NCBI GenBank assembly: GCA_965279745.1
Contig: OZ257262.1
Location: 329,201-361,200, forward strand
Reading direction: 5' to 3'
DNA: 32,000 nt
From: Mycobacterium sp.
Lineage (GTDB): Bacteria > Actinomycetota > Actinomycetes > Mycobacteriales > Mycobacteriaceae
In this document: positions 6,357 through 30,700 of the stretch, one piece after another
Position numbering within the stretch: position 1 is the first letter of the stretch
How the letters are laid out: the number at the start of each line of letters is the position of its first letter
Program-made: the position numbers and the translations under genes
Notes under the pieces: model-generated
Database searches by the model: none
What the model was told of the DNA's origin: nothing
The model's input: only the letters and a program-made list of their open reading frames with translations

Positions 6357-7712
6357 TGTATGACGTCGGTTGATGCTTGACGTTTCGTCTTCGGGTGATG
6401 CCTGACAGTGTTTCGGCTGATGCTTGACAGTTACTTCGGTTGATTCTTGACACTCCCTTAATGAGGGAGATCAGCGTGGCTGAGCAGAGGTATCAGGCGG
6501 TGTTGGCCGTCATCAGTGATGGGTTGTCGATTTCGCAGGTGGCGAGCAAGGTCGGGGTGTCTCGGCAGACCGTGCATGCCTGGTTGGCCCGGTATGAGGC
6601 TGAGGGTCTGGAAGGGCTGAACGATCGGTCGCATCGGCCAGCGAACTGTCCGCATCAGATGCCCGCCGAGGTGGAGGCCGCGGTCTTGGAGTTGCGCCGG
6701 TCACGCCCGTATTGGGGGCCGCGGCGGCTGGTGTTCGAACTGGCTAAACGCAAGGTGCGACCAGTGCCGTCGGAATCGGCGGTGTATCGGGCATTGGTAC
6801 GAGCCGCCATGATCGATCCGACCTTGCGTGATCGGCGATCCCGTAAGTGGAAACGTTGGGAACGCGGTTCAGCGATGGAGTTGTGGCAGATGGACGTCGT
6901 CGGCGGGTTCCCGCTCGCTGATGGCACCAGCGCCAAAGCGCTGACCGGGATTGATGATCACTCCCGGATGTGCGTGTGCGCCCGGTTAATGAGCGCCGAA
7001 CGCACCCGGGCGGTGTGCGACGGACTGCGCGAGGCGTTGGCTACCTATGGGGCTCCCGAGCAGATCTTGACCGACAACGGAAAGGTGTTTACAGGCCGGT
7101 TCAACCATCCGCCTGTAGAGGTGCTCTTTGATGCGATCTGCCGCGAGCAGGGGATCGAGCATCTGTTGACTCAGCCGCGCAGTCCGACCACGACGGGAAA
7201 GATCGAACGATTTCACCGCAGTCTGCGCGCCGAGTTCCTCAGCGAACAAACAGCTTTCCGCAATCTGAAGACAGCTCAGCAGGCACTCGACGAGTGGGTG
7301 GAGTATTACAACACTGCCCGGCCGCACCAGTCGCTGAGATGGACACTCCCGCTCAACGGTTCACCGCCGGCGGTCCTCCCCAGCGTTCATCGACTCCAAC
7401 TGCGATCTCTACCGACCGCACGGGCGAACACTGGGTCAGCCGCAAGGTCTGCGCCAACGGCATCGTCTGTGTGTCCTGGCAACAGGTTTCAGTCGGGGTT
7501 CACCGGGCCGGAGCTCGCTGCGATGTCCACGTCGATGGTGAGCTGTTGCGTTTCTGGATCGGCGAGGAACTAGTCAAGACCGCCACGCGGACCAGCCACG
7601 GCGAGGTAAGAAATAAACGGGCCGCCCGCACCCGCGAGCAGGCCTAACACAACACAAAGAGTGTCAAGGATCAACCGACGCTGAAACGTCAAGAATCAAC
7701 CGACTCTGAACA
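6357..7712 (+). mobile_element. IS481-family insertion sequence, 1356 bp
   Basis: The ends have the TGT...ACA form. IRL is TGTATGACGTCGGTTGATGCTTGACGTTTC. The reverse complement of IRR is TGTTCAGAGTCGGTTGATTCTTGACGTTTC, and the core GTCGGTTGATnCTTGACGTTTC matches at 21 of 22 positions. It carries a single DDE transposase gene and is flanked by a 16-bp direct repeat. Confidence 0.8.
6461..7647 (+). pseudogene. IS481-family DDE transposase, interrupted by a 1-nt frameshift near 7336-7338
   Basis: Frame A (6440/6461..7573) carries the HTH region (SISQVASKVGVSRQTVHAWLARY) and the integrase core (WQMDVV..DDHSR..LTDNGKVF..TTGKIERFH..YYNTARPHQSL), then turns into nonsense. Frame B (..7647) continues with the expected family C-terminus MDTPAQRF..EHWVSRKVCANGIVCVSWQQVSVGVHRAGARCDVHVDGELLRFWIGEELVKTATRTSHGEVRNKRA. 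There is no slippery heptamer at the junction (tcgctgagatgg). Confidence 0.8.
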
Positions 7713-7754: not shown

Positions 7755-7964
7755 ATGTCGCGAACCAACATTGAAATCGATGACGAGCTCATCGGTCAGG
7801 TGATGCGGCGATTCGGCGTGGCGACCAAGAAGCAGGCTGTTGACCTGGCTCTGCGGCGTCTGGTTGGCGTGCCTTTAACCCGCGACTTTTTGCTGGGTCT
7901 CGAAGGCGTCGGTTGGGACGTGGGGCTTGACGACGTCCGCCGAGAGCTGCCCGGCGAGTTCTGA
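7755..7964 (+). CDS. vapB: Type II antitoxin, VapB family
   Basis: [37 protein letters not shown] is the classic VapB N-terminus. Its stop overlaps the vapC ATG (TGATG). The ATG at 7755 is preferred over the GTG at 7740. Confidence 0.8.
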
Positions 7965-8368
7965 TGATCCTGATCGACACGTCGGCATGGATCGAGTACT
8001 TCCGCGCGACCGGGTCGGCTGCCGCAGTCGAGGTGCGGCGACTCTTGTCGACCGAGGCGGGTCGGGTTGTGATCTGTGAGCCCGTCGCGATGGAGATCTT
8101 GTCGGGTGCGATCGACGATGGACGGTATGCCAAGCTTGAGCAGCTCGTGAACGGGTTACCCTCGCTGAGCGTGGATGACGCTGTCGACTTCCGCACGGCC
8201 GCAACGATCTACCGGACCGCCAGGCGCGCCGGTCAGACGATCCGCAGTGTGAACGACTGCCTGATCGCCGCAGTATCGATTCGCCACGGCGCCAGCGTTG
8301 TTCACCGTGATGCGGACTTTGAAGTGATCGCGGCGATCACAGGTCTGGCCGCAGAATCGTTTTGGTAG
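7964..8368 (+). CDS. vapC: Type II toxin VapC, PIN-domain ribonuclease, 134 aa
   Basis: [47 protein letters not shown] carries the PIN acidic residues in their canonical spacing. It is translationally coupled to vapB. Confidence 0.9.
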   Translation: MILIDTSAWIEYFRATGSAAAVEVRRLLSTEAGRVVICEPVAMEILSGAIDDGRYAKLEQLVNGLPSLSVDDAVDFRTAATIYRTARRAGQTIRSVNDCLIAAVSIRHGASVVHRDADFEVIAAITGLAAESFW

Positions 8369-10532: not shown

Positions 10533-11777
<1,245 letters not shown>

Positions 11778-11915: not shown

Positions 11916-12146
11916 TCATTTTCTCTCGGTGATTTTGACGGCCGTTGAGGCCGAGACTTCACGCAATCGTTCCGCGTGGGTCGGTGTGACCGCGCACGCA
12001 TATTCAGCCTGAAATCGCCGGTCCAAAGCCTGGTGTCCGAAAGACGGCAGTGCCGCTTCAAGGGCCATAGCCGCAGCGTGCCCGCGATGGGTTGTCGAAA
12101 CCAATTGGTTGGCGACACGCGGGTCATGACCCCGATGTGGCGGTTT
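11916..12146 (-). pseudogene. Possible C-terminal remnant of a tyrosine recombinase/integrase (5'-truncated)
   Basis: The minus-strand translation ..THRGHAAAMALEAALPSFGHQALDRRFQAEYACAVTPTHAERL loosely matches the integrase C-terminal pattern (H-x-x-R-H-t-a-A-t-l-a-l-e-a-G ... L-G-H ... Y-s-H-V-t-p). It is degenerate, and this is a motif-level impression only. Confidence 0.3.
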
Positions 12147-12245
12147 GGTTGCTGGCTGGTAGGTTTCCGGGTGGTTTGTTGTGTGGTGTGTGGAATGGGC
12201 TGTGTGGGTGTCTTCAGACATCTGCGTGGTTGTGTTTCTAAAACG

Positions 12246-12274
12246 CTGACACTTGTGGTGTTGGTGTGCATAAT
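12246..12274 (+). promoter_or_regulatory. Near-consensus sigma-A promoter of giant gene copy 1
   Basis: cTGACA (12246-12251), a 17-nt spacer, then cATAAT (12269-12274). The predicted 5' UTR of about 36 nt ends in the strong SD AAGGGGGAG, 5 nt before ATG 12318. Confidence 0.55.
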
Positions 12275-12317
12275 GGGCCGAACCGTGCTGAGAAAGTCCT
12301 GAGAAGGGGGAGTTGTC

Positions 12318-15300
12318 ATGAGTGTTGTTTCTGGTGTTGAGGGTGGTTCGGATTTTGTTGGTTCGGCCAGTTCAGTGCGGGTTGGGCGGGGTGTGGTGGT
12401 GCGTGCTGTGGGGGTTGGTGTGCGTGGTGGGTTGAGGTCTGTGGTGTCGGGTCCTGGGGGTTATGTGGGTCGGGTGGGTGCGTTGGCGGTGGCGTTGGGG
12501 GTGGGTGCTGCGGTGGCGGTGATGCCGGCGGTGGCGTTTGCTGATACGACGGGTTCGGGGGGGGCGTCGGCGTCGGATTCGGGGTCGTCGGGTTCGGTGA
12601 AGGGTGCGCCGGGTCATCGTTCGGGTGGTGCGGGGTCGCGGTCGGGGTCGTCTGCGGGTGGTTCGTCTGCTGGTGGTGTGGGGTCTGAGGGTGTTGTTGA
12701 GGGTGGGGTGTCGGGTTCGTCGGGTGTTGGTGGTGAGTCGGAGGGGTCTTCGGTTGGTGCGGGGTCGGGGGCGGGGTCTGTGTCGGGTGGGGTGAAGTCT
12801 GGTCGTCGGTCGGGGTTGGGTTCGGGTGGTTCGGGTTCGGGTGGTTCGGGGTTTGAGGGTGTGGCGCCGGCGGGTGCGGTGGCGGGTGCGTCGCCGGTGG
12901 TGGTGGGTTCGTCGGGTGTGGGTGGGGTGTCTGTTGTGGTGCCGGAGGTGGGTGTGCCGGTGGTGGATGAGGGTGTGGTGGTTTCGGGTTCTGATGATGT
13001 TGTGGTGGCGCCGGTGTTGTCGGTGGCGCCGCCGGTGGCGGCGGTGCCGTCGGGTGCGGTGTCGGGGTTGGGTGGTGGGTTGTTGTCGTGGCTTGGGTTT
13101 GGTGGTGGGGCTGCGGGTGGTTCGGATGGTTCGGGTGTGGGTGGGCCGTTGGGGTGGGCGTTGTTGGGGTTTGTGCGTCGTGATGGGTCGCGTGGTGGGC
13201 GTGATGTGGCGCCGCCGGCGGCGGGGGTGTCGTCGGGTGAGTCGTCGGGTGGGTTGTGGTCGGGTGCGGGTGCTGCGGTGTCGGGTGTGGGGAGTGTTCC
13301 GTCGGCGGCGTCGGTGGGGTCGTCGGTGGGTGCGGGGGCGAGTGATATTTGGTTGTTTGGGAATGGGACTGCTGAGCATCCTGATGGCGGGATTTTGATT
13401 GGTAATGGGTATTCGTGGACGGGGTATGCGGGGGTGTGCACCAGTGGTGCGTGCAATGGTGGTAATGGTGGGTTGATTGGTTCGGGTGGTGCTGGGTTTG
13501 CGGGTGGTAATGGTGGTTCGGCGGGGTGGTTTGGTTCGGGTGGTGCTGGTGGTGCTGGGACTAATGGTGTTTCTGGTGGTGCTGGTGGTAAGGGTGGTAC
13601 GGGTGGGTTGTTTATTGGTAATGGTGGTAATGGTGGTGCTGGTGGTGCTGCGAGTGCTGGTAATGGTGGTGCGGGTGGTGCTGGTGGGGATACGGGTCTG
13701 ATTTCGTGGGGTGCTGCGGGTAATGGTGGTGCTGGTGGTGTGGGTAGTGGTGGTTTTGTGGGTGGTGTTGGTGGTGCGGGTGGTTCTGCTGGGCTGATTT
13801 CGACGATTAGTTCTGGTGGTGTGGGTGGTGCTGGTGGTGCTGGTGGTACGGGTGGTGCTGGTGGTGCTGGTGGTAATGGTGGTTTGGTGGTTGGTGGTGG
13901 TGGTGCTGGTGGTACGGGTGGGGCGACCACGTTGATTGGTGGTGTGGGTGGTGATGGTGGTGATGGTGGTTCTACGGGGTTGTTGTCGGTGTCGGGTGAT
14001 GGTGGTGCGGGTGGTGCGGGTGGTGCGGGTGGTGCGGGTTTGGCGGGTGTGACGGGGACGTCGCCGGGTGGTGCGGGTGGTGTGGGTACTGCTGGTGGTA
14101 AGGGCGGTGCTGGTGGTGATGGTGGTGCTGGCAGCTTTGTGTTTGGTGCTGGTGGTGCTGGTGGTGCTGGTGGTGCTGGTGGTGTTGGTGGTGTTGGTGG
14201 TACGGGTGCTGCGGGTGCTGGTGCGACGGCTGCGGGTGCTGCTGGTGGTGTTGGTGGTGCTGGTGGTACGGGTGGTGCTGGTGGTGTTGGTGGTGTGGGT
14301 GGTAATGGTGGTGATGGGCGGATTCTGTTCTTTGTTGATTCGTCGGGTGCGGCGGGTGTGGGTGGTAAGGGTGGTTCCGGCGGTGGTGCGGGTGTTGCCG
14401 GTGATGGTGGTGTTGGTGGTGCGGGTAATGCGGGCACGCCTGATGGTGGTGCGGGTGGTGCTGGTGGTAATCCGGGTAAGGCCGGTGTGGGTGGTGCCGG
14501 TGGTGCGGGTGGTTCGGGTAATGGTGGTGGTGGTGCTGGTGCTTCGGGTGCTGCGGGTTCGGCGGCGACCTCGGGGGGTAATGGCGGTAATGGTGGGGCT
14601 GGGTTCAGTGCTGTGGTGGCGGGTGCTGGCGGTAATGGTGGTGCTGGCGGTGCTGGTGGCGCGGTGGGTAATGGCGGTAATGGTGGTGCGGCGGGTGCGG
14701 GTGCTGGGGGTACGGCGGGCACTTCTGGTGTGACGGGCACTGATGGTGGTTCTGGTTTCGCTGGTGGTGTGGGTGGTGCTGGTGGTGCTGGTGGTAGCAC
14801 GTCGGGTAATGGTGGTAATGGTGGTGCGGGTGGTGCCGGTGGTGCTGGTGGTGCGGGTGGTAGTGGTTCTGATGGTGCTGCCGGGGTGGGTTCGGGTGCT
14901 TCGGGTAGTGATGGTGGTGATGGTGGTTCTGGTGGTAAGGGCGGTAAGGGTGGTGCCGGCGGTAACGCGGGTAAGGCGTTGGGGGCTGGTTCGGCTGGGG
15001 TGAATGGCACTGGTGGTGCTGGTGGTACGGGTGGTAGTGCGGGTAATGCGGGTAATGGTGGTACGGGTGCGGCGGGGACGAACATCATCACTCCTGATGG
15101 TGGTGCTGGTGGTAATGGTGGTGAGTTGGGTACTGCGGGTACTGGTGGTGCTGGTGGTGCGGCGGGTACTGGTGGTTCTGGTGGTGCGACCGGTAGTGAT
15201 GGCGGTAATGGCGGGTCGGGTTCTGGTGGTAATGGTGGTGCGGGTGGTGCCGGCTGGAATTCCACGGTGACCAATGTGGCTGGCGGTAATGGTGGTGCGG

Positions 15301-16967
15301 GTGGTAACGCGGGCACGGTCGGTAATGGTGGTGCTGGTGGTGCGGGTGGTAACGGGTCGACCGGGACTGCTGGTGGTGCTGGTGGTGCGGGTGTTGGTGG
15401 CGGTAATGGTGGTGCGGGGTCCACCGCGGGTAATGGTGGTGCTGGTGGTGCTGGTGGCACGTTGGTGGGTAATGGTGGTGCTGGTGGTGTTGGTGGTGTT
15501 GGTGGTGCGGGTGGTAATGGTGGTGCTGGTGGTGATGGTGCTACTGGTGGTGCTGGTGTGGCTGGTGGTACTGGTGGTGATGGTGGTACCGGGGGTAGTG
15601 GTGCTAAGGGTGGCCAGGGCGGTGCGGGTGGTGCTGCGGGTGGTAAGGGCAGTGTCGGACAGAACGGTAATGGTGGTGCTGGTGGCGCCGGGGGTGATGC
15701 GGGTAACGCCGGCAATGGCGGTAATGGTGGTGCCGGGACTGCGTTGAACCCGGATGGTGGTGCTGGTGGTAATGGCGGCAATGTCGGGTTCGCTGGTACT
15801 GGTGGTGCTGGTGGTGCGGCGGGTAGTGGTGGCACTGGTGGGGTGAGTGGGGTTACCGGTGGTGATGGTGGTTCTGCTGGTGGCGGTAATGGCGGTAATG
15901 GTGGTGCGGGGTGGAACAGCCTTACTGCGTCGAAGGCTGGCGGTAAGGGTGGTGCTGGTGGTGCTGGTGGTTTCGTCGGTAATGGTGGTGTTGGTGGTTC
16001 TGGCGGTAACGGTGCGAGTGGTCAGGCCGGTGTTGATGGTGGTGTCGGGGTTGATGGGACCAGTGGTGGTAATGCCAGCGCTGGTGGTGCCGGTGGTGCG
16101 GGCGGTGCTGGTGGGGCGATAGCGGGTTCTGGTGGTGCTGGTGGTTCTGGCGGTAATGGTGGTTCTGGTGGTGCGGGCGGTAATGGTGGTAACGGTGCTG
16201 CTGGTGGTGCTGGTTTGGCTGGTGGGACTGGTGGTAATGGCGGTACGGGTGGTAACGGTGCTGCTGGTGGTGCTGGTGGTGCTGGTGGTAAGGCGGTCGG
16301 TATTGGTTCTGCCGGTAGTGATGGCAGTGGTGGTGCGGGTGGCACGGGTGGTAATGCCGGTAATGCCGGTAATGGTGGTACCGGTGGTGCGGGTGTGTCG
16401 TCGGTGACTCCGAATGGTGGTGCTGGTGGTAATGGTGGTGAGCGTGGCGCGGCGGGTGCTGGCGCTGCCGGTGGTGCCGCGGGTGGTCCTGGTGGTACGA
16501 CGGGTGCTAGTGGTGTTGGTGGTGCTGCGGCGTCGGGTGGCAATGGTGGTAATGGTGGTGCTGGCTGGAACAGCAATGATCCGTCGAAGGCTGGCGGTAA
16601 GGGTGGTGCTGGTGGTAACGCGGGTTCGGTCGGTGATGGTGGTGCTGGTGGTGCCGGCGGTAATGGTGCTTCGGGTGCGGTAGGGGCTAATGCCGGTCCG
16701 GGTGGCAATGGTGGTCTTGGTGGTGCGGGCAGTGTTGGTGGTGCCGGTGGTGCTGGCGGTAACGGCGGGTCGTCGAAGGGTGACGGCGGTGCTGGTGGTG
16801 TCGGTGGTGTGGGTGGTGCCGGCGGTAACGGCGGTAACGGCGGTAACGGCGCTACCGGGGTTGGTGGTGGTGCGTCGGTGGTGATGGCGGTAATGGTGGC
16901 ACTGGTGGTGCTGGTGCTGCTGGTGGTAAGGGCGGCACGCACGGGTTCGCGCTCGGTGGTGGTGTGA
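12318..16967 (+). CDS. Giant secreted PGRS-like glycine-rich repeat protein, 5' segment (ORF ends artificially because of a 1-nt deletion at 16876)
   Basis: Supported by the promoter, the SD and ATG 12318. The signal peptide is ..[25 protein letters not shown]|D (cleavage after residue 75). It is followed by a Ser/Gly/Val-rich linker of about 260 aa, then the PGRS-type onset [43 protein letters not shown] and GGAGGxGG repeats. The last 31 residues (..[17 protein letters not shown]..) are out-of-frame read-through. Confidence 0.8.
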
Positions 16968-19900
16968 ATGGTGCTGATGGCAATGGTGGTACTGGTGGCA
17001 CGGGTGGTAATGCTGGTGATGCCGGTAATGGTGGTGCTGGTGCTGGTGGTACTTCGGGTTCGCCGGATGGTGGTACCGGTGGTGATGGTGGTGATCGGGG
17101 TACTGCCGGTGTTGGTGGTGCCGGGGGTGCTGCTGGAGGGACTGCGGGTTCTGCCGGTGTGACAGGCGCTGATGGTTCTGGGGCGTCGGGTGGTAATGGT
17201 GGTGCTGGTGGTGCCGGTTGGACCAGCACGAGTGGTGCTACCGCTGGTGGTAATGGTGGTGCTGGTGGTAACGCGGGTACCTATGGCAATGGTGGTGCTG
17301 GCGGTGCTGGTGGTACTGGTGCTGGGGGTACTGCGGGGATTGCGGGGGCGACTGCTGCTGCCGGTGGTGCCGGTAATAACGGCGGCACGGGTGGTAATGG
17401 CAGTGCTGGTGGTGCTGGTGGTGCTGGTGGTAAGGGCGGTTCGGTCGCCGGTAATGGTGGTGCTGGTGGTGTTGGTGGTGCCGGTGGCTCGGGTGGTACC
17501 GGTGGCGCCGGGTCTGATGGTGGGCTCGGGGTGATCACGATCAACGCTGGTGCTGGTGGTAACGGTGGTACGGGTGGTACTGGTGGTGCTGGTGCTTCTG
17601 GTGGTGCTGGTGGTGCTGGTGGTGCTGCGGGTGGTGTTGGTTCCTCGGGTGCGGATGCTGATGGTGGTGCTGGTGGTTCCGGTGGTAATGCCGGTAATGC
17701 CGGTAATGGTGGTACGGGTGCTCAGGGTGATTTGAACTTGGGTCCTGCTAATGGTGGTGCTGGCGGTAATGGTGGTACGTGGGGCACTGCGGGTGCTGGT
17801 GCTGCTGGCGGTGCCGCGGGTGGGGCGGGTGCTAGCGCGGGGTCGAGTGGTTCTTCGGGTACGGCGGCTACTGCTGGTGGTAACGGTGGTGATGGTGGTG
17901 CCGGCTGGAACAGCACGAACCCGGCGTTCGGTGGCGGTAATGGTGGTGCCGGCGGTAATGCCGGTTCGTTGGGTACTGGTGGTAATGGTGGTACTGGTGG
18001 TCAAGGGTTCACTGGTGTTACCGGTGCGGTAGGGGCCACTGGTGGTGGTGCTGGTGGTAACGGTGGTACCGGTACCGCGGGTGGTAACGGTGGTGCTGGC
18101 GGTAATGGTGGTGTGTTCGGTGGTAACGCCGGTAATGGTGGTAATGCCGGTAATGGTGGTACCGGTGGTGCTGGCGGTAATGGTGGTACCGGTGCTTCCG
18201 GTGGTGCTGGTGGTACTGCCGGTAATGGTGGTAGTGGTGGCGCCGGGGGCAGTGGTGGTGCTGGTGGTAAGGCGTTGGTGGCTGGGTTCACCCATGGCAA
18301 TGGCGGTAATGGTGCTACCGGTGGTACTGGGGGTAACGCCGGTAATGGTGGTACTGGTGGTGGTGGTACTGCGGGCACACCTAATGGTGGTGATGGTGGT
18401 GCTGGTGGTACGCGTGGTGGTGCTGGTGCTTCGGGTGCTGGTGGTGCCGCGGGTGGTACGGGTGCGTCGGCGGGGTCGGCGGGGACCTCGGGTGCCGCGG
18501 GGACCACTGGCGGTAATGGTGGTGCTGGTGGTGCGGGCTGGAACAGCGACTCGAGTAGCGCTGCTGGTGGTGCCGGCGGTAAGGGTGGTGCCGCGGGTGC
18601 TATCGGTGATGGTGGTGCTGGTGGTGCTGGTGGTAATGGTTTTGCTGGTGCTGCTGGTGGTAACGGCTCTACTGGCGGGTACGGGGTTTCTGGTGGAGAC
18701 GCCACGTCTAATGGTGGTTGGGGCACTGCTGGTGGTGCTGGTGGTGCTGGTGGTACGGGCGGGACGACCTCGGGTAAGGGTGGTTCCGGTGGTGCTGGTG
18801 GTGTTGGTGGTGTTGGTGGTACCGGCGGTAACGGCGGTAACGGTGGTACCGGGACGACCGCGGGCAGTGGTTCCGGCGGTAATGGTGGTACCGGCAGTGC
18901 TGGTGGTACCGGTGGTACCGGTGGTGCTGGGGGTGCTGCGGGTAAGGCTGGCGGCACGGGTGGTACGACCGGTGCTAATGGCAGTGGCGGTAATGGTGGT
19001 ACTGGTGGTGCTGCGGGTAACGCCGGTAATGGTGGTGCTGGTGCTGGCGGGACGGCGGGCACACCGAATGGTGGCGATGGTGGTGAGGGCGGTAACCGTG
19101 GTGCCGCCGGTAATGGTGGTACCGGGGGCTTGGCTGGTGGCACGACCGGCGGTGCGGCGGCGGGGACCACGGGGAGCACTGGTGGTGTCGGGGCGTTGGG
19201 TGCCGGCGGTAATGGTGGTTCTGGTGGTGACGGCTTTGATGGGTCGGGTACCACGGGCGCTAACGGCGGTAATGGCGGTAAGGGTGGTGCGGCTGGTTCG
19301 TTCGGTAATGGTGGTGCCGGTGGTAAGGGCGGTAATGGTGGCGGGGGGACCGCGGGGACTGCGGGGACCACGGGCAGCACTGATGGCGTTACTGGTCAGG
19401 CTGGTGGTGTTGGTGGTGCTGGTGGTGCTGGTGGTAGGGGCGGTTTGGTCCAGGGTGATGGTGGTGCCGGCGGTAAGGGCGGTAACGGTGCTACCGGTGG
19501 TACCGGTGGTGACGGCCATGATGGTGCGGCCGGGGTTACCGGGGTAAATAACGGTGTTGGTGGTGCTGGTGGTACTGGCGGTAATGGTGGTGCTGGTGGT
19601 GCCGGTGGTAAGGGTGGTAAGGGTGGTACGGCGGCGTCGGGTACTACCGGTGCTAATGGCAGTGGCGGTAACGGTGCTACTGGTGGTAACGCGGGTAACG
19701 CCGGTAACGGTGGGGCCGGTGCTACCGGGACGGTGGCTAACCCGAATGGCGGTAATGGTGGTACCGGCGGTACTCGGGGTACTGCTGGTGGTGCTGGTGC
19801 TGCTGGTGCTTCGGGGACCACTCCGGGTGGCGCGTCGGGGTCGACCGGGACTGCCGGGACTACTGGTGCTGGGGCCACGTTCGGTGGTAACGGCGGTAAT

Positions 19901-20000
19901 GGTGGTAACGGCTACAACGACCTGACCACCGGTGCCAGCGCCGGTAACGGCGGTAACGGTGGTAACGCCGGGTTGATCGGTAACGGCGGTAATGGTGGTA
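14600..20000 (+). repeat. Array of at least 8 higher-order modules of about 630-700 bp (about 220 aa) inside the giant gene
   Basis: An anchor motif GG(N/D)GG(A/N)G(W/F/Y)(N/T/D)S recurs near 14603, 15255, 15912, 16566, 17219, 17906, 18539, 19236 and 19914. Each is preceded by [10 protein letters not shown]..(T/N)P(D/N)GGxGGxGGxxGxAG and followed by ..[26 protein letters not shown]. Confidence 0.75.
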
Positions 20001-22975
20001 ACGGTGGCGCGGCGGATGCCCAGACCGGTACCAGCACCGGGGTGATCAGGACTGGCGGTAATGGTGGTGCTGGTGGTGCTGGTGGTGCCACGTCGGGTAA
20101 CGGTGGTGCCGGTGGTGCTGGTGGCAACGCGCATACCCGCGATTCGGGTTCGCGGGCGATCGGTGGTGCTGGCGGTGCTGGTGGCGCGTCGATCGGGGCC
20201 ACGGGCTCGAGCAGTGCCGCGGGTAATGGTGGTGCCGGTGGTAACGGGAACTCTGAACAGGATCACGGCTTCGGTGGTACCGGTGGTGCTGGCGGGTCGG
20301 TGGCGTTCGCTGACGGTAATGGCGGTAATGGTGGTGCCGGTGGTGGTGCTACGGGTGCCGGTATTGCTGCTGGTGGTGCTGGTGGTGCTGGTGGTGCTGT
20401 CGGTTCTGGTGTCGGTAACGGCGGTAATGGTGGTGCTGGTGGTGGCGCCTCTGGTGACACGTTCGTCAGCTCGACCGGTGGTGCTGGTGGTGCCGGTGGT
20501 ACCGGCGGTGCTGGTGGTGGTGATGGTGGTGCTGGCGCGGTCGGTGGTGACGCGACCTCGGTCAATACCATTGCTACCGGTGGTGCTGGTGGTAAGGGCG
20601 GATTCGCGGCGGGCACGGTCGGTAACGGTGGTGCTGGTGGTGCCGGTGGTAGCGGTGCGGCCGGGGCCTCTGGTGATACCGCCACGGGCGGTCAGGGTGG
20701 TGCCGGTGGTGGCGCGTCTGCCGGTAACGGTGGTGCTGGTGGTGCCGGTGGCGGCGCCTCAGTCGGCGCGACGGGCTTCGCTGCCTTTGGTGGTGCCGGC
20801 GGTGCCGGTGGTGCTGGTGGCGGTGTCGGTAACGGTGGTGCCGGCGGTAAGGGCGGCAACGCACAAGGCATCGGATTCGTTGGAACCTTCGATGCGCAGG
20901 CCGGTGTCGGTGGTATCGGTGGGGCCGCGGGGGTGACCGGTACCGGTGGCCAGGGCGGCGACGGCGGTGACGCCGTGTCCACAGGCACCGGCATCGTCAA
21001 CACCGGCGCTGTTGGTGGTAACGCCGGTAAGGGCGGCACCGGCGGATCCACCAGTGGCAACGGCGGCGCCGGCGGCAAGGGCGGCGCAGCCACCGCGGCG
21101 GATAGCTTCGCCAAGGGCGGTGCGGCCGGTAATGGTGGTAACGCTGTCAACGCCGGCAACGGTGGTGTCGGCGGTCGCGGCGGCGACGCCACGATGACAG
21201 GCGCCGGTTCCACGGCTAACGGTGGTGTTGGTGGTCAAGGTGGTGCGGCGGGCAGCCTCAGCGGTAACGGCGGTGCTGGTGGCCGCGGCGGCGACGCGTC
21301 CGCGACCGGGGCAGGTTCGACCGCCACCGGTGGTGCCGGTGGTACTGGTGCTAACGCCGCCGTCGAAGGTGCCGGTGCTGGTGGCGCCGGCGGTGACGCC
21401 ACCTCAGCGGTCGGCAATGCTCGCGGTGGTGTTGGTGGTAAGGGTGGTGACGGTGCGCTCGGCACCGCAGGTACCACCGGCGGAGTCGGGGGTGCGGGCA
21501 CGACCGGTGCGGCTGGTGGGGCTGGTGGCAGCGCTACCGCAGGCGGCACGGGTAGCGCAATCGGCGGTATCGGCGGCACCGGCGGTGCCGGTGGTGGCGG
21601 TGGGCTCGGCGGCAATGGCAGTGCCGGGACCACCGGTGCTGCAGGCAATACCGCTGGCGCTGGTGGCACCGCTGGTAACGGTGGTAGCGGTGGTGCCGGT
21701 GGAGTTGCAACCACCAGCGGTACCGGGACCGCGGTCGGCGGCAAGGGTGGGCTCGCCGGTGCCGGTGGTACAGGCGGTAAAGGCGGAGTCGGCGGCACCG
21801 GCGGAACCGGGGGTGCCACAGGCGGTGCGGGCGGTGCTGGTGGTGTCGGCGGCAACGCCGGCATCGGTGGTGCCGGTGGCGCCGCAGTCGCTACCGGCGT
21901 CGGAACAATAGCTATCGGCGGAGAAGGCGGCGGTGCTGGCGCGCAAGGCGCCGGTGGCGTTGGTGGTACCGGTGGTGTTGGTGGTACCGGGGCCGCGCTG
22001 GGCGCCGGGGGCAAGGGCGGCAAGGGCGGCGCCGGCGGTAACAACGGCAACGGAGGTGTTGGTGGTGTTGGTGGCACCGGGACCTCTAGCGACGGCAATG
22101 CGATCGGTGGTACTGGCGGCAATATCGCCGTTGCTTCGGTTGCTGCTGCGGCGGGTGGCAAGGGTGGTGCTGGTGGCGCCACCGGTGCCGGTGGCGTGAC
22201 CGGCGGCAACGGCGGCGACGGGGGCAACGGCGGCAAGGCCGGTACAGGTTTTGTCGGTGGGACCGGCGGCAGCGCCTTCTCTAGCGGAACAAACGCTTCT
22301 GCGGTCGGCGGCGTCGGTGGGTCGACCATCAGTTCGACTACGGGTGGAGCAGGTGGTGCTGGAGGTGCGGCCGCGGGTGGTGGTGGAACCACCGGCGCGA
22401 CGGGCGGCACCGGTAGTGCCGGTATCGGTGGTGCTGGCGGCAACGGCGGTAACGCGACCTCCACCAACGGAGCCGCCTTGGGCGGTAACGGCAACATTGG
22501 AGGCGATGCTGGCAGCGGTACTGGTGGTGTTGCGGGGACGGCTGGTAATGGCGGTAGCGCCACGGCCGGCGGAACCAATGCCGGAGCCACTGGTGGGAAG
22601 GGCGGCGTCGGCGGCTCAGGCGCTCCTGCTAACGCGTTCGGTGCTCAGGGTGGCATTGGTGGCAGTGCGACTTCCACCAATGGATTCGCTGTGGGCGGTA
22701 CCGGTGGTCGCGGTGGCGATACATCCAGTGTGATCGGGGGTACCGGTGGTAAGGGCGGCGACGCCGTGGCTGGCGGAACCAACTCTCCGGCCACCGGTGG
22801 TGCCGGCGGTGCCGGCGGCAACGCCACCGTGGCTGGCGGTACGGGCGGTAACGGCGGTAACGGCGGCGACGCCTCGTCGGCCGCCGGAATCCCGACCGGC
22901 GGCAACGGCGGCGGCGGCGGCACTGGTATCGCCCCCGGGGTCAACGGCACCCCAGGCACCCACGGCAACCCCTAA
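16964..22975 (+). CDS. 3' segment of the same giant glycine-rich gene (a continuation, not an independent gene)
   Basis: The GTG at 16964 is an internal Val codon in copy 2, where the frame runs straight through (..[42 protein letters not shown]..). There is no RBS. The same repeat architecture continues. The C-terminal part of about 900 aa switches to GGxGGxGGDA/S-type repeats. The stop at 22973-22975 is followed by a strong hairpin. Confidence 0.8.
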
Positions 22976-23590: not shown

Positions 23591-24201
23591 CCACTTTTGA
23601 CCTGTCCCGGCTTCCCGGACGGCTGGTGTTGGGTGTTCACGCGGCCGTGTTGGTGGTCGTGTGGTGTCTTTCGTAGTCGATAGGGCTGCAGTAGTCCAGA
23701 GCGCTGTGACGGCGGACGGGTTCGATCTGCAGGGAGCCAAAGAACGATTCGATCATCGCGTTGTCAAAGGCGGAGGCCACCTGGCCCATAGAAGCCAGGA
23801 GGCCTGCCTCGCGGAGCCGGTGGCCGAACAGCCAACTGGTACTGGGTTCCGCGGTCGGAGTGCACGATCGTGCCGACGGGTTTGCGGCGTAGTCGGGCCA
23901 TGTCGAGAGCGTCGGCGAACAGTTCGGTCCGCAAGTGATCGGCGATCGACCAGCCGACCACCCGGCGGTAGACCGTAGGTCTGCCGTGAGCCGGTATGGA
24001 TCGCCACGACGGTGTTGGCTAACTCGGCGTCCACACGATCGCTGGTCCTTGGCAACCCGAGCGATCGGCTTCTCCCGCAGCCGGGCCAACTCCACCGCAC
24101 GACGGCGAAACTCCTCCGAATAAGCAGCGGTCATCGTTTCTCTGACTCCTTCCGTTGAGACGATCATCGCCTCAACCGCGGTGTCTGGGAAAGTGGGAAC
24201 A
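23586..24201 (-). mobile_element. Internally deleted IS3-family element (616 bp) that retains both terminal inverted repeats
   Basis: The termini TGTTCCCACTTT (23586-23597) and AAAGTGGGAACA (24190-24201) form a perfect 12-bp inverted repeat. The [10 protein letters not shown] and ATG 24134 open the orfA N-terminus MTAAYSEEFRRRAVELARLREKPIARVAKD. It is then fused, through deletions and frame changes, to OrfB pieces RVDAELANTVVAIHTGSRQTYG, VVGWSIADHLRTELFADALDMA..VGTIVHSDRGTQY and ..MGQVASAFDNAMIESFFGSLQIE..RRHSALDYCSPIDYE. No flanking target duplication is seen. Confidence 0.65.
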
Positions 24202-24480
24202 GGGGTCGCCCGCCTCAATGCCGCCCACAACGCCGGGCGCCTGCCGGCCGAACTGGTCACGCTGCGTCGCGTCGGATCGCTAGTCGGGACGAGGTCGGCT
24301 ACATCCCGTTCAAGCAGGACGCCGCGAACCGGGGGCAGACCCTTGCCCTCGGCCAGAGCAGACAACACCGCACAATAATCCACGACCACGTGCCCACTTT
24401 TCACCGTCGCTTCCGGGCCTAGGTTTCGACCATCGTCAACAGGGCCGCGCGGTCTACCGTCATCTACTCGTGCAGCAGAC
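24202..24480 (+). pseudogene. IS21-family IstB-like ATPase fragment (C-terminal part, frameshifted)
   Basis: The plus-strand translation ARLNAAHNAGRLPAELVTLRR.. then, after a -1 shift, ..DEVGYIPFKQDAAN matches the IstB pattern (L..L..A...G.L...L..L.. LLIIDE.GY.P.....A). Downstream it is degenerate. It begins exactly at the IS3-remnant boundary. Confidence 0.4.
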
Positions 24481-24684
24481 ACACTCCAGTCGTCGTTTGT
24501 GGTTGAGATTTTGAGAGTCGACCTGGGACGGAGTGGTCGGTGGAGGATTCGTTGGCGTGGTTGGGTGGGTCCTCGTGTGCCTGTTGGGTTGCTGGCTGGT
24601 AGGTTTCCGGGTGGTTTGTTGTGTGGTGTGTGGAATGGGCTGTGTGGGTGTCTTCAGACATCTGCGTGGTGGCGATTCGACACG

Positions 24685-24713
24685 CTGACACTTGTGGTGT
24701 TGGTGTGCATAAT
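24685..24713 (+). promoter_or_regulatory. Promoter of giant gene copy 2 (same -35/-10 as copy 1)
   Basis: cTGACA 24685-24690, a 17-nt spacer, then cATAAT 24708-24713. The SD and ATG 24757 are the same as in copy 1. The sequence immediately upstream of -35 differs from copy 1. Confidence 0.5.
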
Positions 24714-24756
24714 GGGCCTAACCGTGCTGAGAAAGTCCTGAGAAGGGGGAGTTGTC

Positions 24757-27700
24757 ATGAGTGTTGTTTCTGGTGTTGAGGGTGGTTCGGATTTTGTTGG
24801 TTCGGCCAGTTCAGTGCGGGTTGGGCGGGGTGTGGTGGTGCGTGCTGTGGGGGTTGGTGTGCGTGGTGGGTTGAGGTCTGTGGTGTCGGGTCCTGGGGGT
24901 TATGTGGGTCGGGTGGGTGCGTTGGCGGTGGCGTTGGGGGTGGGTGCTGCGGTGGCGGTGATGCCGGCGGTGGCGTTTGCTGATACGACGGGTTCGGGGG
25001 GGGGCGTCGGCGTCGGATTCGGGGTCGTCGGGTTCGGTGAAGGGTGCGCCGGGTCATCGTTCGGGTGGTGCGGGGTCGCGGTCGGGGTCGTCTGCGGGTG
25101 GTTCGTCTGCTGGTGGTGTGGGGTCTGAGGGTGTTGTTGAGGGTGGGGTGTCGGGTTCGTCGGGTGTTGGTGGTGAGTCGGAGGGGTCTTCGGTTGGTGC
25201 GGGGTCGGGGGCGGGGTCTGTGTCGGGTGGGGTGAAGTCTGGTCGTCGGTCGGGGTTGGGTTCGGGTGGTTCGGGTTCGGGTGGTTCGGGGTTTGAGGGT
25301 GTGGCGCCGGCGGGTGCGGTGGCGGGTGCGTCGCCGGTGGTGGTGGGTTCGTCGGGTGTGGGTGGGGTGTCTGTTGTGGTGCCGGAGGTGGGTGTGCCGG
25401 TGGTGGATGAGGGTGTGGTGGTTTCGGGTTCTGATGATGTTGTGGTGGCGCCGGTGTTGTCGGTGGCGCCGCCGGTGGCGGCGGTGCCGTCGGGTGCGGT
25501 GTCGGGGTTGGGTGGTGGGTTGTTGTCGTGGCTTGGGTTTGGTGGTGGGGCTGCGGGTGGTTCGGATGGTTCGGGTGTGGGTGGGCCGTTGGGGTGGGCG
25601 TTGTTGGGGTTTGTGCGTCGTGATGGGTCGCGTGGTGGGCGTGATGTGGCGCCGCCGGCGGCGGGGGTGTCGTCGGGTGAGTCGTCGGGTGGGTTGTGGT
25701 CGGGTGCGGGTGCTGCGGTGTCGGGTGTGGGGAGTGTTCCGTCGGCGGCGTCGGTGGGGTCGTCGGTGGGTGCGGGGGCGAGTGATATTTGGTTGTTTGG
25801 GAATGGGACTGCTGAGCATCCTGATGGCGGGATTTTGATTGGTAATGGGTATTCGTGGACGGGGTATGCGGGGGTGTGCACCAGTGGTGCGTGCAATGGT
25901 GGTAATGGTGGGTTGATTGGTTCGGGTGGTGCTGGGTTTGCGGGTGGTAATGGTGGTTCGGCGGGGTGGTTTGGTTCGGGTGGTGCTGGTGGTGCTGGGA
26001 CTAATGGTGTTTCTGGTGGTGCTGGTGGTAAGGGTGGTACGGGTGGGTTGTTTATTGGTAATGGTGGTAATGGTGGTGCTGGTGGTGCTGCGAGTGCTGG
26101 TAATGGTGGTGCGGGTGGTGCTGGTGGGGATACGGGTCTGATTTCGTGGGGTGCTGCGGGTAATGGTGGTGCTGGTGGTGTGGGTAGTGGTGGTTTTGTG
26201 GGTGGTGTTGGTGGTGCGGGTGGTTCTGCTGGGCTGATTTCGACGATTAGTTCTGGTGGTGTGGGTGGTGCTGGTGGTGCTGGTGGTACGGGTGGTGCTG
26301 GTGGTGCTGGTGGTAATGGTGGTTTGGTGGTTGGTGGTGGTGGTGCTGGTGGTACGGGTGGGGCGACCACGTTGATTGGTGGTGTGGGTGGTGATGGTGG
26401 TGATGGTGGTTCTACGGGGTTGTTGTCGGTGTCGGGTGATGGTGGTGCGGGTGGTGCGGGTGGTGCGGGTGGTGCGGGTTTGGCGGGTGTGACGGGGACG
26501 TCGCCGGGTGGTGCGGGTGGTGTGGGTACTGCTGGTGGTAAGGGCGGTGCTGGTGGTGATGGTGGTGCTGGCAGCTTTGTGTTTGGTGCTGGTGGTGCTG
26601 GTGGTGCTGGTGGTGCTGGTGGTGTTGGTGGTGTTGGTGGTACGGGTGCTGCGGGTGCTGGTGCGACGGCTGCGGGTGCTGCTGGTGGTGTTGGTGGTGC
26701 TGGTGGTACGGGTGGTGCTGGTGGTGTTGGTGGTGTGGGTGGTAATGGTGGTGATGGGCGGATTCTGTTCTTTGTTGATTCGTCGGGTGCGGCGGGTGTG
26801 GGTGGTAAGGGTGGTTCCGGCGGTGGTGCGGGTGTTGCCGGTGATGGTGGTGTTGGTGGTGCGGGTAATGCGGGCACGCCTGATGGTGGTGCGGGTGGTG
26901 CTGGTGGTAATCCGGGTAAGGCCGGTGTGGGTGGTGCCGGTGGTGCGGGTGGTTCGGGTAATGGTGGTGGTGGTGCTGGTGCTTCGGGTGCTGCGGGTTC
27001 GGCGGCGACCTCGGGGGGTAATGGCGGTAATGGTGGGGCTGGGTTCAGTGCTGTGGTGGCGGGTGCTGGCGGTAATGGTGGTGCTGGCGGTGCTGGTGGC
27101 GCGGTGGGTAATGGCGGTAATGGTGGTGCGGCGGGTGCGGGTGCTGGGGGTACGGCGGGCACTTCTGGTGTGACGGGCACTGATGGTGGTTCTGGTTTCG
27201 CTGGTGGTGTGGGTGGTGCTGGTGGTGCTGGTGGTAGCACGTCGGGTAATGGTGGTAATGGTGGTGCGGGTGGTGCCGGTGGTGCTGGTGGTGCGGGTGG
27301 TAGTGGTTCTGATGGTGCTGCCGGGGTGGGTTCGGGTGCTTCGGGTAGTGATGGTGGTGATGGTGGTTCTGGTGGTAAGGGCGGTAAGGGTGGTGCCGGC
27401 GGTAACGCGGGTAAGGCGTTGGGGGCTGGTTCGGCTGGGGTGAATGGCACTGGTGGTGCTGGTGGTACGGGTGGTAGTGCGGGTAATGCGGGTAATGGTG
27501 GTACGGGTGCGGCGGGGACGAACATCATCACTCCTGATGGTGGTGCTGGTGGTAATGGTGGTGAGTTGGGTACTGCGGGTACTGGTGGTGCTGGTGGTGC
27601 GGCGGGTACTGGTGGTTCTGGTGGTGCGACCGGTAGTGATGGCGGTAATGGCGGGTCGGGTTCTGGTGGTAATGGTGGTGCGGGTGGTGCCGGCTGGAAT

Positions 27701-30700
27701 TCCACGGTGACCAATGTGGCTGGCGGTAATGGTGGTGCGGGTGGTAACGCGGGCACGGTCGGTAATGGTGGTGCTGGTGGTGCGGGTGGTAACGGGTCGA
27801 CCGGGACTGCTGGTGGTGCTGGTGGTGCGGGTGTTGGTGGCGGTAATGGTGGTGCGGGGTCCACCGCGGGTAATGGTGGTGCTGGTGGTGCTGGTGGCAC
27901 GTTGGTGGGTAATGGTGGTGCTGGTGGTGTTGGTGGTGTTGGTGGTGCGGGTGGTAATGGTGGTGCTGGTGGTGATGGTGCTACTGGTGGTGCTGGTGTG
28001 GCTGGTGGTACTGGTGGTGATGGTGGTACCGGGGGTAGTGGTGCTAAGGGTGGCCAGGGCGGTGCGGGTGGTGCTGCGGGTGGTAAGGGCAGTGTCGGAC
28101 AGAACGGTAATGGTGGTGCTGGTGGCGCCGGGGGTGATGCGGGTAACGCCGGCAATGGCGGTAATGGTGGTGCCGGGACTGCGTTGAACCCGGATGGTGG
28201 TGCTGGTGGTAATGGCGGCAATGTCGGGTTCGCTGGTACTGGTGGTGCTGGTGGTGCGGCGGGTAGTGGTGGCACTGGTGGGGTGAGTGGGGTTACCGGT
28301 GGTGATGGTGGTTCTGCTGGTGGCGGTAATGGCGGTAATGGTGGTGCGGGGTGGAACAGCCTTACTGCGTCGAAGGCTGGCGGTAAGGGTGGTGCTGGTG
28401 GTGCTGGTGGTTTCGTCGGTAATGGTGGTGTTGGTGGTTCTGGCGGTAACGGTGCGAGTGGTCAGGCCGGTGTTGATGGTGGTGTCGGGGTTGATGGGAC
28501 CAGTGGTGGTAATGCCAGCGCTGGTGGTGCCGGTGGTGCGGGCGGTGCTGGTGGGGCGATAGCGGGTTCTGGTGGTGCTGGTGGTTCTGGCGGTAATGGT
28601 GGTTCTGGTGGTGCGGGCGGTAATGGTGGTAACGGTGCTGCTGGTGGTGCTGGTTTGGCTGGTGGGACTGGTGGTAATGGCGGTACGGGTGGTAACGGTG
28701 CTGCTGGTGGTGCTGGTGGTGCTGGTGGTAAGGCGGTCGGTATTGGTTCTGCCGGTAGTGATGGCAGTGGTGGTGCGGGTGGCACGGGTGGTAATGCCGG
28801 TAATGCCGGTAATGGTGGTACCGGTGGTGCGGGTGTGTCGTCGGTGACTCCGAATGGTGGTGCTGGTGGTAATGGTGGTGAGCGTGGCGCGGCGGGTGCT
28901 GGCGCTGCCGGTGGTGCCGCGGGTGGTCCTGGTGGTACGACGGGTGCTAGTGGTGTTGGTGGTGCTGCGGCGTCGGGTGGCAATGGTGGTAATGGTGGTG
29001 CTGGCTGGAACAGCAATGATCCGTCGAAGGCTGGCGGTAAGGGTGGTGCTGGTGGTAACGCGGGTTCGGTCGGTGATGGTGGTGCTGGTGGTGCCGGCGG
29101 TAATGGTGCTTCGGGTGCGGTAGGGGCTAATGCCGGTCCGGGTGGCAATGGTGGTCTTGGTGGTGCGGGCAGTGTTGGTGGTGCCGGTGGTGCTGGCGGT
29201 AACGGCGGGTCGTCGAAGGGTGACGGCGGTGCTGGTGGTGTCGGTGGTGTGGGTGGTGCCGGCGGTAACGGCGGTAACGGCGGTAACGGCGCTACCGGGG
29301 TTGGTGGTGGTGCGTCCGGTGGTGATGGCGGTAATGGTGGCACTGGTGGTGCTGGTGCTGCTGGTGGTAAGGGCGGCACGCACGGGTTCGCGCTCGGTGG
29401 TGGTGTGAATGGTGCTGATGGCAATGGTGGTACTGGTGGCACGGGTGGTAATGCTGGTGATGCCGGTAATGGTGGTGCTGGTGCTGGTGGTACTTCGGGT
29501 TCGCCGGATGGTGGTACCGGTGGTGATGGTGGTGATCGGGGTACTGCCGGTGTTGGTGGTGCCGGGGGTGCTGCTGGAGGGACTGCGGGTTCTGCCGGTG
29601 TGACAGGCGCTGATGGTTCTGGGGCGTCGGGTGGTAATGGTGGTGCTGGTGGTGCCGGTTGGACCAGCACGAGTGGTGCTACCGCTGGTGGTAATGGTGG
29701 TGCTGGTGGTAACGCGGGTACCTATGGCAATGGTGGTGCTGGCGGTGCTGGTGGTACTGGTGCTGGGGGTACTGCGGGGATTGCGGGGGCGACTGCTGCT
29801 GCCGGTGGTGCCGGTAATAACGGCGGCACGGGTGGTAATGGCAGTGCTGGTGGTGCTGGTGGTGCTGGTGGTAAGGGCGGTTCGGTCGCCGGTAATGGTG
29901 GTGCTGGTGGTGTTGGTGGTGCCGGTGGCTCGGGTGGTACCGGTGGCGCCGGGTCTGATGGTGGGCTCGGGGTGATCACGATCAACGCTGGTGCTGGTGG
30001 TAACGGTGGTACGGGTGGTACTGGTGGTGCTGGTGCTTCTGGTGGTGCTGGTGGTGCTGGTGGTGCTGCGGGTGGTGTTGGTTCCTCGGGTGCGGATGCT
30101 GATGGTGGTGCTGGTGGTTCCGGTGGTAATGCCGGTAATGCCGGTAATGGTGGTACGGGTGCTCAGGGTGATTTGAACTTGGGTCCTGCTAATGGTGGTG
30201 CTGGCGGTAATGGTGGTACGTGGGGCACTGCGGGTGCTGGTGCTGCTGGCGGTGCCGCGGGTGGGGCGGGTGCTAGCGCGGGGTCGAGTGGTTCTTCGGG
30301 TACGGCGGCTACTGCTGGTGGTAACGGTGGTGATGGTGGTGCCGGCTGGAACAGCACGAACCCGGCGTTCGGTGGCGGTAATGGTGGTGCCGGCGGTAAT
30401 GCCGGTTCGTTGGGTACTGGTGGTAATGGTGGTACTGGTGGTCAAGGGTTCACTGGTGTTACCGGTGCGGTAGGGGCCACTGGTGGTGGTGCTGGTGGTA
30501 ACGGTGGTACCGGTACCGCGGGTGGTAACGGTGGTGCTGGCGGTAATGGTGGTGTGTTCGGTGGTAACGCCGGTAATGGTGGTAATGCCGGTAATGGTGG
30601 TACCGGTGGTGCTGGCGGTAATGGTGGTACCGGTGCTTCCGGTGGTGCTGGTGGTACTGCCGGTAATGGTGGTAGTGGTGGCGCCGGGGGCAGTGGTGGT

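Follow-up and report, generated by a model that had tools for sequence, protein, structure and literature searches.

Tandem genes of an environmental Mycobacterium probably encode a giant PGRS-type protein with a Sec-type leader

Within a stretch of 32,000 nucleotides from Mycobacterium sp. (NCBI GenBank assembly GCA_965279745.1, contig OZ257262.1, positions 329,201 to 361,200; hereafter the window), two near-identical tandem genes were recognized that probably encode a giant exported protein of the polymorphic GC-rich sequence (PGRS) type, equipped with a Sec-routed leader and belonging to an environmental mycobacterium; for this reading as a whole we estimate a probability of about 0.65. In the literature, PGRS domains are treated as a hallmark of slow-growing pathogenic mycobacteria and are tied to the PE domain and to ESX-5. 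The protein described here comprises, from the N- to the C-terminus, a leader (amino acids (aa) 1-75), a disordered linker, a W-L-G...RRD element, a head with a pair of cysteines, a PGRS region punctuated by hydrophobic residues, nine hydrophilic modules and a C-terminal region of 850 aa. It is an extreme member (giant, duplicated and compositionally odd) of a widespread family of PGRS-domain proteins with a signal-peptide-type leader. Coordinates of all features are compiled in Table 1.

In the sequence as written, the first gene is divided into two open reading frames (ORFs), which a preceding sequence-only reading of this DNA had proposed to fuse upon restoration of one base at position 16876. 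Insertion of a single C after this position indeed yields one frame of 10,659 nt (3,552 codons plus stop), and the restoration is directly supported, because the second gene copy carries the respective C at position 29316 and its frame runs continuously through it. Positions 24576-32000 are 99.84% identical to positions 12136-19559 over 7,426 aligned columns. Within the coding parts (~7.2 kb) no substitution and two single-base indels (C at 16876/29316 and G8/G9 at 12557/24996) were detected between the copies, while the remaining ten differences are confined to positions 12140-12280, upstream of the start codon; the spacer separating the copies measures 1.6 kb. Across its 3,552 codons the glycine-rich frame is interrupted only once, and the other two plus-strand frames hold 125-171 stops across the region. 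Overall, the restored protein contains 46.7% Gly, 16.9% Ala, 7.3% Thr, 6.9% Ser and 6.0% Asn. The codon ATG at 12318 is the first start codon downstream of an in-frame stop, and its use as the true start is supported by a Shine-Dalgarno sequence. An Rfam scan near the gene revealed neither a riboswitch nor any other RNA element. A circular or concatemer artefact was ruled out, the repeat being limited to positions 12136-19559 with the 440 nt upstream of it not repeated, and so was programmed -1 frameshifting at 16876, where no slippery heptamer is found and where copy 2 has the extra base. Minus-strand ORFs overlying the gene (12372-20266, up to 1,414 aa listed) are rich in Pro, Thr, Arg and His and were read as shadow ORFs of the GGN repeats.

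The leader was evaluated by heuristic rules for n-, h- and c-regions, lipobox and twin-arginine motif, and it displays the features of a Sec substrate of signal peptidase I (SPase-I), i.e., a positively charged n-region, an h-region and small residues at -3 and -1, with neither a lipobox cysteine nor a twin-arginine motif. The n-region of 52 aa contains 6 Arg and 2 acidic residues (net charge +4), and the h-region of ~23 residues constitutes the only hydropathy peak (aa 53-75, KD19 up to 2.29). The cleavage-type site consists of P70 at -6 and A73-F-A75 preceding D76. No RR pair is present within aa 1-80, and a lipobox is lacking, since the first cysteine of the protein is residue 374. On these grounds, Sec targeting and SPase-I cleavage at A75|D76 would be expected. 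Across relatives, a motif of 19 residues in the leader is almost invariant, and the family conserves Pro at -6 as well as A-x-A followed by Asp. Extended or conserved signal peptides are also known from other very large surface proteins, namely ESPR from Gram-negative autotransporters and TpsA proteins, and YSIRK-G/S from Gram-positive surface proteins. In functional terms the leader resembles these in combining an unusually long n-region and a conserved sequence with a very large, presumably surface-located protein, but it differs in organism and envelope type, and sequence similarity is not expected. By analogy, the long n-region together with the conserved h-region may serve a specific targeting step.

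Behind the leader, aa 76-344 are composed of 30% Gly, 20% Ser and 16% Val. The conserved element that separates the low-complexity linker from the PGRS head has the family consensus LLSWLG...PLxWxALAxxRR(D/E), is as conserved as the head itself and was modelled by AlphaFold2 as short helices at low confidence. By eye, the stretch GLLS...VWAVMAWARRQ ahead of the PGRS domain in both M. smegmatis RS04235 and M. neworleansense PGRS1 resembles this element (PMC11939664, supplement 8). Aliphatic and aromatic residues account for 16% of aa 345-706 versus 5.9% of the nine modules, which measure 213-229 aa each and share 53-69% pairwise identity. Endings of the type G-x-N-G-x-P-G, as found in the C-terminal region, recur in relatives. 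The sequence-only reading had described much of this anatomy correctly: the n-region of about 50 aa, the hydrophobic core and the AFA|D motif were located at aa 1-52, from aa 53 onward and at aa 73-76, respectively, and the composition of aa 76-344 agrees with the Ser/Gly/Val-rich linker of ~260 aa that it had delimited. Its GGxGxD/N units are also present, GG.G.[DN] occurring 99 times as compared to 33 +/- 5 times in shuffles. Among the body motifs it had quoted, GGILIGNGG is absent, the actual sequence being GGILIGNGY at aa 357, while the others were found (one of them at aa 430).

Searching with aa 1-360 retrieved unnamed Mycobacteriaceae proteins from metagenome-assembled genomes (MAGs) and metagenomes which share one layout: a variable basic n-region, the near-invariant leader motif followed by (T/S)(T/S)GS, a variable linker rich in Ser, Ala, Pro and Gly, the W..RR element and the head. 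An exhaustive profile search yielded 2,216 cluster representatives at E<=1e-3; tightening the threshold to E<=1e-10 left 688, and a threshold of E<=1e-30 left 146. The 688 representatives derive nearly all from environmental Mycobacterium MAGs; likewise, the 236 confirmed loci (one genome per GTDB species), 80 of which were fetched for inspection, belong almost all to environmental Mycobacterium/Mycolicibacterium MAGs. The few isolates comprise Mycolicibacterium sp. CH28, Mycobacterium sp. M26 and M. iranicum H39. Several paralogues per genome are present; three family genes in a row occur at positions 8549-16186 of locus L035, and at least three reside on contig JAXLRY010000005.1 (316 kb, MAG STL-ACT21; loci L001, L002 and L023). 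Giant relatives range from 2,000 to more than 3,700 aa (3,140 aa in L015, 3,333 aa in L018, >3,718 aa in L016). Source names of the relatives are absent, read 'hypothetical' or were taken from the C-terminal domain, and in the resources searched the leader-plus-head family is without a family model or an informative name.

The survey of leader features covered 108 relatives whose head is preceded by 150 aa or more. Of these, 87 possess a hydrophobic segment, in every case with a small-x-small site behind it, and 57 possess an 11-residue motif. The cysteine pair is nearly universal (104/108), and the W..RR[DE] element was found in 69. The family n-region has a median length of 32 aa before the conserved motif. 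In one relative (P0185), the same PGRS head is preceded by a short signal peptide of another kind, which ends in AGA|D. At the C-terminus, three members carry the PE-PGRS_C aspartyl-peptidase-like domain (best E 1.8e-49) and one a PE-PPE domain; other passengers include TNT toxin, beta-propellers, beta-lactamase, GH12 and cadherin/Big_9 (Ig) repeats.

Signals of type VII secretion were not found. Scans against Pfam and NCBIfam gave no match, PE and PPE included, for aa 1-361 or either ORF. None of 50 family members matched PF00934, while a control (P0184) scored 99 bits for PE. A tblastn search that used the PE domain of PE_PGRS11 as query returned nothing from the window or from 1.47 Mb of related loci. 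YxxxD/E is missing from aa 1-340, because the only tyrosine there is Y49 (YVGRV), and its occurrence in 3 of the 108 relatives equals chance level. The GRPLI motif is absent from the window protein, the corresponding head stretch aligning to GRDLIGNG of PE_PGRS11 only from LIGNG onward. A helical hairpin of ~100 aa with a central W-x-G, as in WXG100/Esx-type proteins, was not found in the window protein, whose W-L-G triplet (aa 258-260) sits between low-complexity sequence and a short low-confidence helix. A PDB sequence search with the N-terminal profile produced 0 matches at E<=1. No ESX genes are present in the window, and among the 80 inspected loci no neighbour family occurs in more than nine, with no ESX, EspG or PPE gene recurring; that no dedicated partner gene was found fits the use of a general pathway.

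Kinship of the head with PGRS domains became apparent by profile-profile comparison. In hhalign, the family head profile matched the first part of the PGRS domain in M. tuberculosis PE_PGRS11 (target fragment carrying PF00934 and PF21526) with a probability of 98.8% (E 1.4e-16, score 120.8, 84 columns). Twenty composition-preserving shuffles of the target scored 15-31 and the reversed sequence 49.5, so the match is not due to Gly content or triplet periodicity alone. M. smegmatis RS04235 aligned likewise, the start of its PGRS domain matching the same head region with a probability of 98.6%. The PF21526 cutoff is passed by relatives P0081 and P0179 (27.6 and 32.9 bits), and 11 of 50 relatives match this model at E<=0.01. 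A phmmer-type search with one 220-aa module gave no match; in such searches low-complexity bias correction probably removes module and head matches, and only the profile-profile comparison worked. Two assertions of the sequence-only reading were thereby borne out, namely that the N-terminus lacks PE and YxxxD/E features (HMM scans, PE tblastn and motif scan all being negative) and that the body is of PGRS type, as indicated by the alignment to PE_PGRS11 and by 47% Gly with period-3 GGX runs.

The head is predicted to form a polyglycine-II (PGII) bundle. Gly autocorrelation at lag 3 amounts to 0.50, and 161 GGX runs of at least two triplets (mode 3; X = Ala > Asn > Thr) were counted, a pattern that fits the PGII-helix geometry described for PGRS 'sandwiches', for which a hydrophobic/aromatic 'straight edge' was also reported (PMC9436101). 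AlphaFold2 modelling of aa 236-700 with an alignment of 50 sequences reached pLDDT values >90 at about aa 345-480, with no helix or strand assigned by DSSP there, and low values elsewhere. The only PDB matches of the head model were the polyproline-II (PPII)-bundle antifreeze proteins 7jjv, 3bog and 2pne, the best of them being marginal (E 2.8e-3, probability 1.0, TM-score normalised to target 0.44). These springtail and snow-flea proteins are antiparallel PPII/PGII bundles built from Gly-rich tripeptide repeats; unlike the window protein they are of arthropod origin and only 80-125 aa long, and there is no evidence of homology or ice binding here.

Taken together, the leader would direct an unfolded Gly-rich polypeptide to the Sec translocon, SPase-I would cut after AFA75, and the protein would fold outside the cytoplasm into stacked PGII helices. 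The two conserved cysteines could form a disulfide there, the pair being suited to an oxidising compartment. As has been suggested for the PE_PGRS 'sails', the head with its Leu, Ile, Phe and Trp residues may associate with the cell envelope or mycomembrane, and the long hydrophobe-poor modules may extend outward as a fibre or coat. Leader plus head would thus represent a portable export and anchoring cassette that is combined with other passengers in relatives, filling by a different route the role which the PE domain has in PE_PGRS proteins. Several points speak against this reading. Each gene copy bears one frameshift, so the sequence as written does not guarantee a full-length product. Both cleavage and Sec dependence are predicted from the leader sequence, and a Sec substrate would still need a path to the mycomembrane surface. 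The n-region of 52 aa is atypically long, and the h-region is far more conserved in sequence than in ordinary signal peptides, suggesting a specific partner or retention after export. Against PF21526 ('PGRS repeats') the window head scored 15.9 bits (E 0.017) at a cutoff of 27, and PE_PGRS11 could not be aligned to the head by BLASTP. Finally, pLDDT averages 49.8 in a second AlphaFold2 model (aa 345-1143), which is mostly of low confidence; values of 80-92 were reached in the module 1 and module 2 cores (aa 754-844 and 984-1064), and the model gave the same weak PDB matches.

Table 1 Features of the giant PGRS-type gene, its tandem copy and the intervening region (window coordinates)
Feature	Position	Strand	Remarks
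Promoter-like site CTGACA-17 nt-CATAAT, copy 1	12246..12274	+	10/12 consensus positions; 0.2 such sites expected by chance
Shine-Dalgarno sequence AAGGGGGAG	12304..12312	+	5 nt before ATG 12318; also repeated before copy 2
ORF, 5' part of copy 1	12318..16967	+	1,549 aa
Putative extended signal peptide, aa 1-75	12318..12542	+	52-aa n-region, h-region from aa 53, c-region AFA before D76
Low-complexity Ser/Gly/Val-rich linker, aa 76-252	12543..13073	+	Length and sequence vary among relatives, median ~209 aa
G8 homopolymer just past predicted cleavage site	12557..12564	+	G9 in copy 2 (24996-25004)
Conserved element GGLLSWLG..., aa 253-289	13074..13184	+	W258, L259 and R287 invariant; L256, G260, W280 and R288 >=90%
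PGRS 'head' unit, aa 345-480 (~135 aa)	13350..13757	+	Cys pair C374/C379, later GGLFIGNGG
Remainder of hydrophobe-punctuated PGRS region, to aa 706	13758..14435	+	GLISW, GLIST, GLVVG, TLIGG, GLLSV, FVFG and ILFFVD recur
Nine tandem modules of ~220 aa, aa 707-2701	14436..20419	+	Landmarks TP(D/N)GG...GWNS...NAGNAGNGG
One-base (C) deficit splitting copy 1 into two ORFs	16876	+	C present in copy 2 at 29316
ORF, 3' part of copy 1	16964..22975	+	2,003 aa
C-terminal Gly/Ala/Thr-rich region, aa 2702-3552	20420..22975	+	GGxGGxGGDA(T/S)..TGAGSTA-type units, a different repeat type
IS3-family transposase remnant between gene copies	23637..24482	-	NCBIfam NF033516, partial (C-terminal), E 4.6e-8, below cutoff
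Second tandem gene copy	24576..32000	+	ATG at 24757; 3' part beyond window end
Promoter-like site, copy 2	24685-24713	+	Same as copy 1

The frameshifts could also mean that the locus is decaying or off, copy 1 giving a truncated product of 1,549 aa and copy 2 a peptide of 123 aa, as its G9 tract puts it out of frame just past the signal peptide; in a variant of this explanation, G8/G9 would act as a slipped-strand phase-variation switch. Exactly one frame-breaking indel per copy, the nearby IS481 and IS3 elements and the location of G8 and G9 (no other homopolymer in the 32-kb window reaches 7 bases) immediately behind the signal peptide, a classic site of contingency tracts, make this a possibility to be taken seriously, albeit a doubtful one. 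The combination of 0 substitutions with two indels, both located in runs of identical bases (G8/G9 and CC/C), is, however, the pattern of long-read consensus errors, the frame is otherwise open over all 3,552 codons, and relatives have no long G tract at this site but runs of 3-7 only. An exact 28-mer and protein scan of metagenome contigs detected no near-identical sequence. That the locus is no real gene at all, the frame being a by-product of composition in repetitive DNA or the true gene lying on the minus strand, is next to inconceivable: minus-strand frames are indeed also long (open up to 1,621 codons), but the non-repetitive leader and head are conserved as protein in hundreds of clusters and are in frame with the repeats, the start codon is preceded by a Shine-Dalgarno sequence and a promoter-like site, and the two alternative plus-strand frames are riddled with the stops counted above.

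Concerning export, the hydrophobic segment might instead be an uncleaved signal anchor which keeps the N-terminus inside the cell, the linker of ~270 aa serving as a cell-wall stalk that presents the PGRS part. The length and hydropathy of the h-region, the long flexible linker behind it and the near-invariance of the segment in relatives that are only 35-60% identical overall, unusual for a peptide to be discarded, would suit such an arrangement; it is nevertheless considered unlikely in view of the Pro at -6 and the A-x-A plus Asp kept by the family, the small-x-small site in all relatives that possess the segment, and the pairing of the same head with a canonical-looking short signal peptide in P0185. 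Still less credit is given to export by a type VII or other dedicated system that recognizes the W-L-G...W..A..RR[D/E] element, with the hydrophobic segment employed otherwise. The element does contain a literal W-x-G, it is conserved like the head, it occurs in 69 of the 108 relatives, and one similar by eye is found in M. smegmatis RS04235 and M. neworleansense PGRS1, the annotated N-termini of which lack an obvious hydrophobic segment by inspection. Neither the ~100-aa helix-turn-helix nor YxxxD/E nor any PE, PPE or Esx match was detected, though, and the neighbourhoods hold no recurrent ESX, EspG or PPE gene. To our knowledge, moreover, a cleavable-looking N-terminal signal peptide is not a feature of known type VII substrates. 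As to the body, the sequence-only reading had offered a beta-roll as an alternative fold, and an RTX-like calcium-binding parallel beta-roll could explain the threefold enrichment of GG.G.[DN] (99 versus 33 expected). This fold is not supported and highly improbable, because full RTX nonapeptides, in which position 8 must be hydrophobic, are rare (8 in 3,208 residues with 2.6 expected, and not in tandem); in addition, the periodicity is 3 and not 9, the AlphaFold2 models contain no strands, and the structural matches are PPII bundles only. A Sec-routed PGRS-type protein remains the preferred reading of the locus.

Compared with the PE_PGRS proteins of M. tuberculosis and M. marinum (PF00934 plus PF21526; ESX-5 substrates), the window protein and its family have in common the first PGRS unit, which is homologous from LIGNG of the GRPLI-type motif onward, the predicted PGII architecture (PMC9436101), the punctuation of repeats by hydrophobic residues in the head region, the PE-PGRS_C and PE-PPE C-terminal passengers of some members, and the organization as a multicopy, tandem gene family. 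In contrast, the window protein is devoid of PE, YxxxD/E and an exact GRPLI; its extended leader resembles a signal peptide, the low-complexity linker behind it is long, and the W-L-G...RRD element and the conserved cysteine pair are further peculiarities. Its gene is not GC-rich at the third codon position, and the signal-peptide PGRS family was found in environmental mycobacteria. The number of pe_pgrs genes in fast growers was given as 0, and with 3,552 aa the window protein exceeds the C-terminal extensions of >1,400 aa quoted for PE proteins (PMC12209268).

In a 2025 review, the occurrence of PGRS domains in M. smegmatis was called 'surprising', and the N-termini of M. smegmatis RS04235 and RS25935 as well as M. 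neworleansense PGRS1 were designated 'questionable' (PMC11939664). Like the window protein, these proteins of non-pathogenic mycobacteria combine a PGRS domain with the lack of a demonstrated PE domain and display, by visual comparison, a W..A..RR element upstream of the PGRS domain; the C-terminal units of RS25935 and RS04235 are of the type GGxGGDAT..TG..ST with G-x-x-N-P endings, again resembling the window protein by eye. They differ in that no hydrophobic signal peptide is obvious, on inspection, at the annotated N-termini, in keeping a PE_PGRS-like linker (QPLHAAGQQFWVVSPIG...) that the window protein does not have, in lacking the GNGYSWT..C..C insert of the latter, and in being much shorter (~700-1,300 aa).

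If a Sec-routed branch truly exists, PGRS export requires neither a PE domain nor ESX-5. The signal-peptide PGRS family would then represent a natural experiment on PGRS function independent of type VII secretion, and Sec would offer a practicable way to produce PGRS modules for structural work. The family also bears on the origin of PE_PGRS genes: tentatively, it could constitute a second, Sec-routed and possibly ancestral PGRS branch, and the PE_PGRS proteins of slow-growing pathogens could have arisen by exchange of the leader for a PE domain, or the reverse, with head unit and passenger domains retained. In this view, the almost complete loss of C and A at third codon positions, weakening from 5' to 3', could be an adaptation or a mutational footprint specific to genes that carry and express very long Gly repeats. 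In metagenome assemblies, most family genes are broken into fragments and lack informative names. A leader-plus-head model would at once annotate many 'hypothetical' proteins.

The codon composition of the gene is peculiar. Of the first ~600 codons, 99-100% end in G or T (eight exceptions only), and this fraction falls smoothly to ~0.8 in mid-gene and ~0.4 at the 3' end; the flanking genes have ~0.52, with 39% C at third positions. Leu is encoded by TTG and Gly by GGT or GGG, A is essentially missing from third positions, and GGT accounts for 72% of the Gly codons in the gene versus 24% in the flanks. The GC content of the gene is 0.63-0.73, and that of its third positions (GC3) 0.33-0.39 over 13341-20000; because third positions are rich in G and T and GC3 is low, the DNA is not a 'polymorphic GC-rich sequence' in the original sense (~80% GC). 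The G+T-rich zone begins in non-coding DNA at ~12100-12136, i.e., at the start of the duplicated segment, and the G/T third-position bias spans 12100-22975 as well as 24550-32000. Relative to homologues, the linker contains more Val and Gly but less Thr and Pro, and six Ala-to-Val differences are unique; among relatives, a comparable third-position gradient was observed in L020 only. Predicted local RNA folding of the first 1.8 kb amounts to -43 kcal/mol per 150 nt as compared to -67 +/- 2 in synonymous recodings with the codon usage of the flanks and -55 kcal/mol per 150 nt in the flanking genes, while the 3' end of the gene is more structured than its own synonymous recodings. Two explanations suit the bias, one being selection against nucleic-acid structure and the other strand-specific mutation from C to T and from A to G.

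Directly upstream of the giant gene (10094-11777), an ORF of 141 aa and a gene for a 406-aa S-adenosylmethionine-dependent methyltransferase are located; looking up the exact methyltransferase sequence matched no record. The same pair adjoins family genes in L024, L033 and L040 (64-72% identity), there in opposite orientation, and the 141-aa ORF is present without the methyltransferase in L011 (50% identity). Further upstream, a tRNA-Met gene (6273-6349) is followed by an IS481-family transposase gene (6440-7647), seemingly frameshifted near 7300 (ORFs 6440..7573 and 7294..7647), and by an ORF (7964..8368) that was judged by eye to encode a PIN-domain (VapC-type) toxin-like protein. A plasmid search with the flank yielded no match, and the layout of tRNA-Met, IS481 and toxin-like gene upstream of the giant genes resembles a genomic island.

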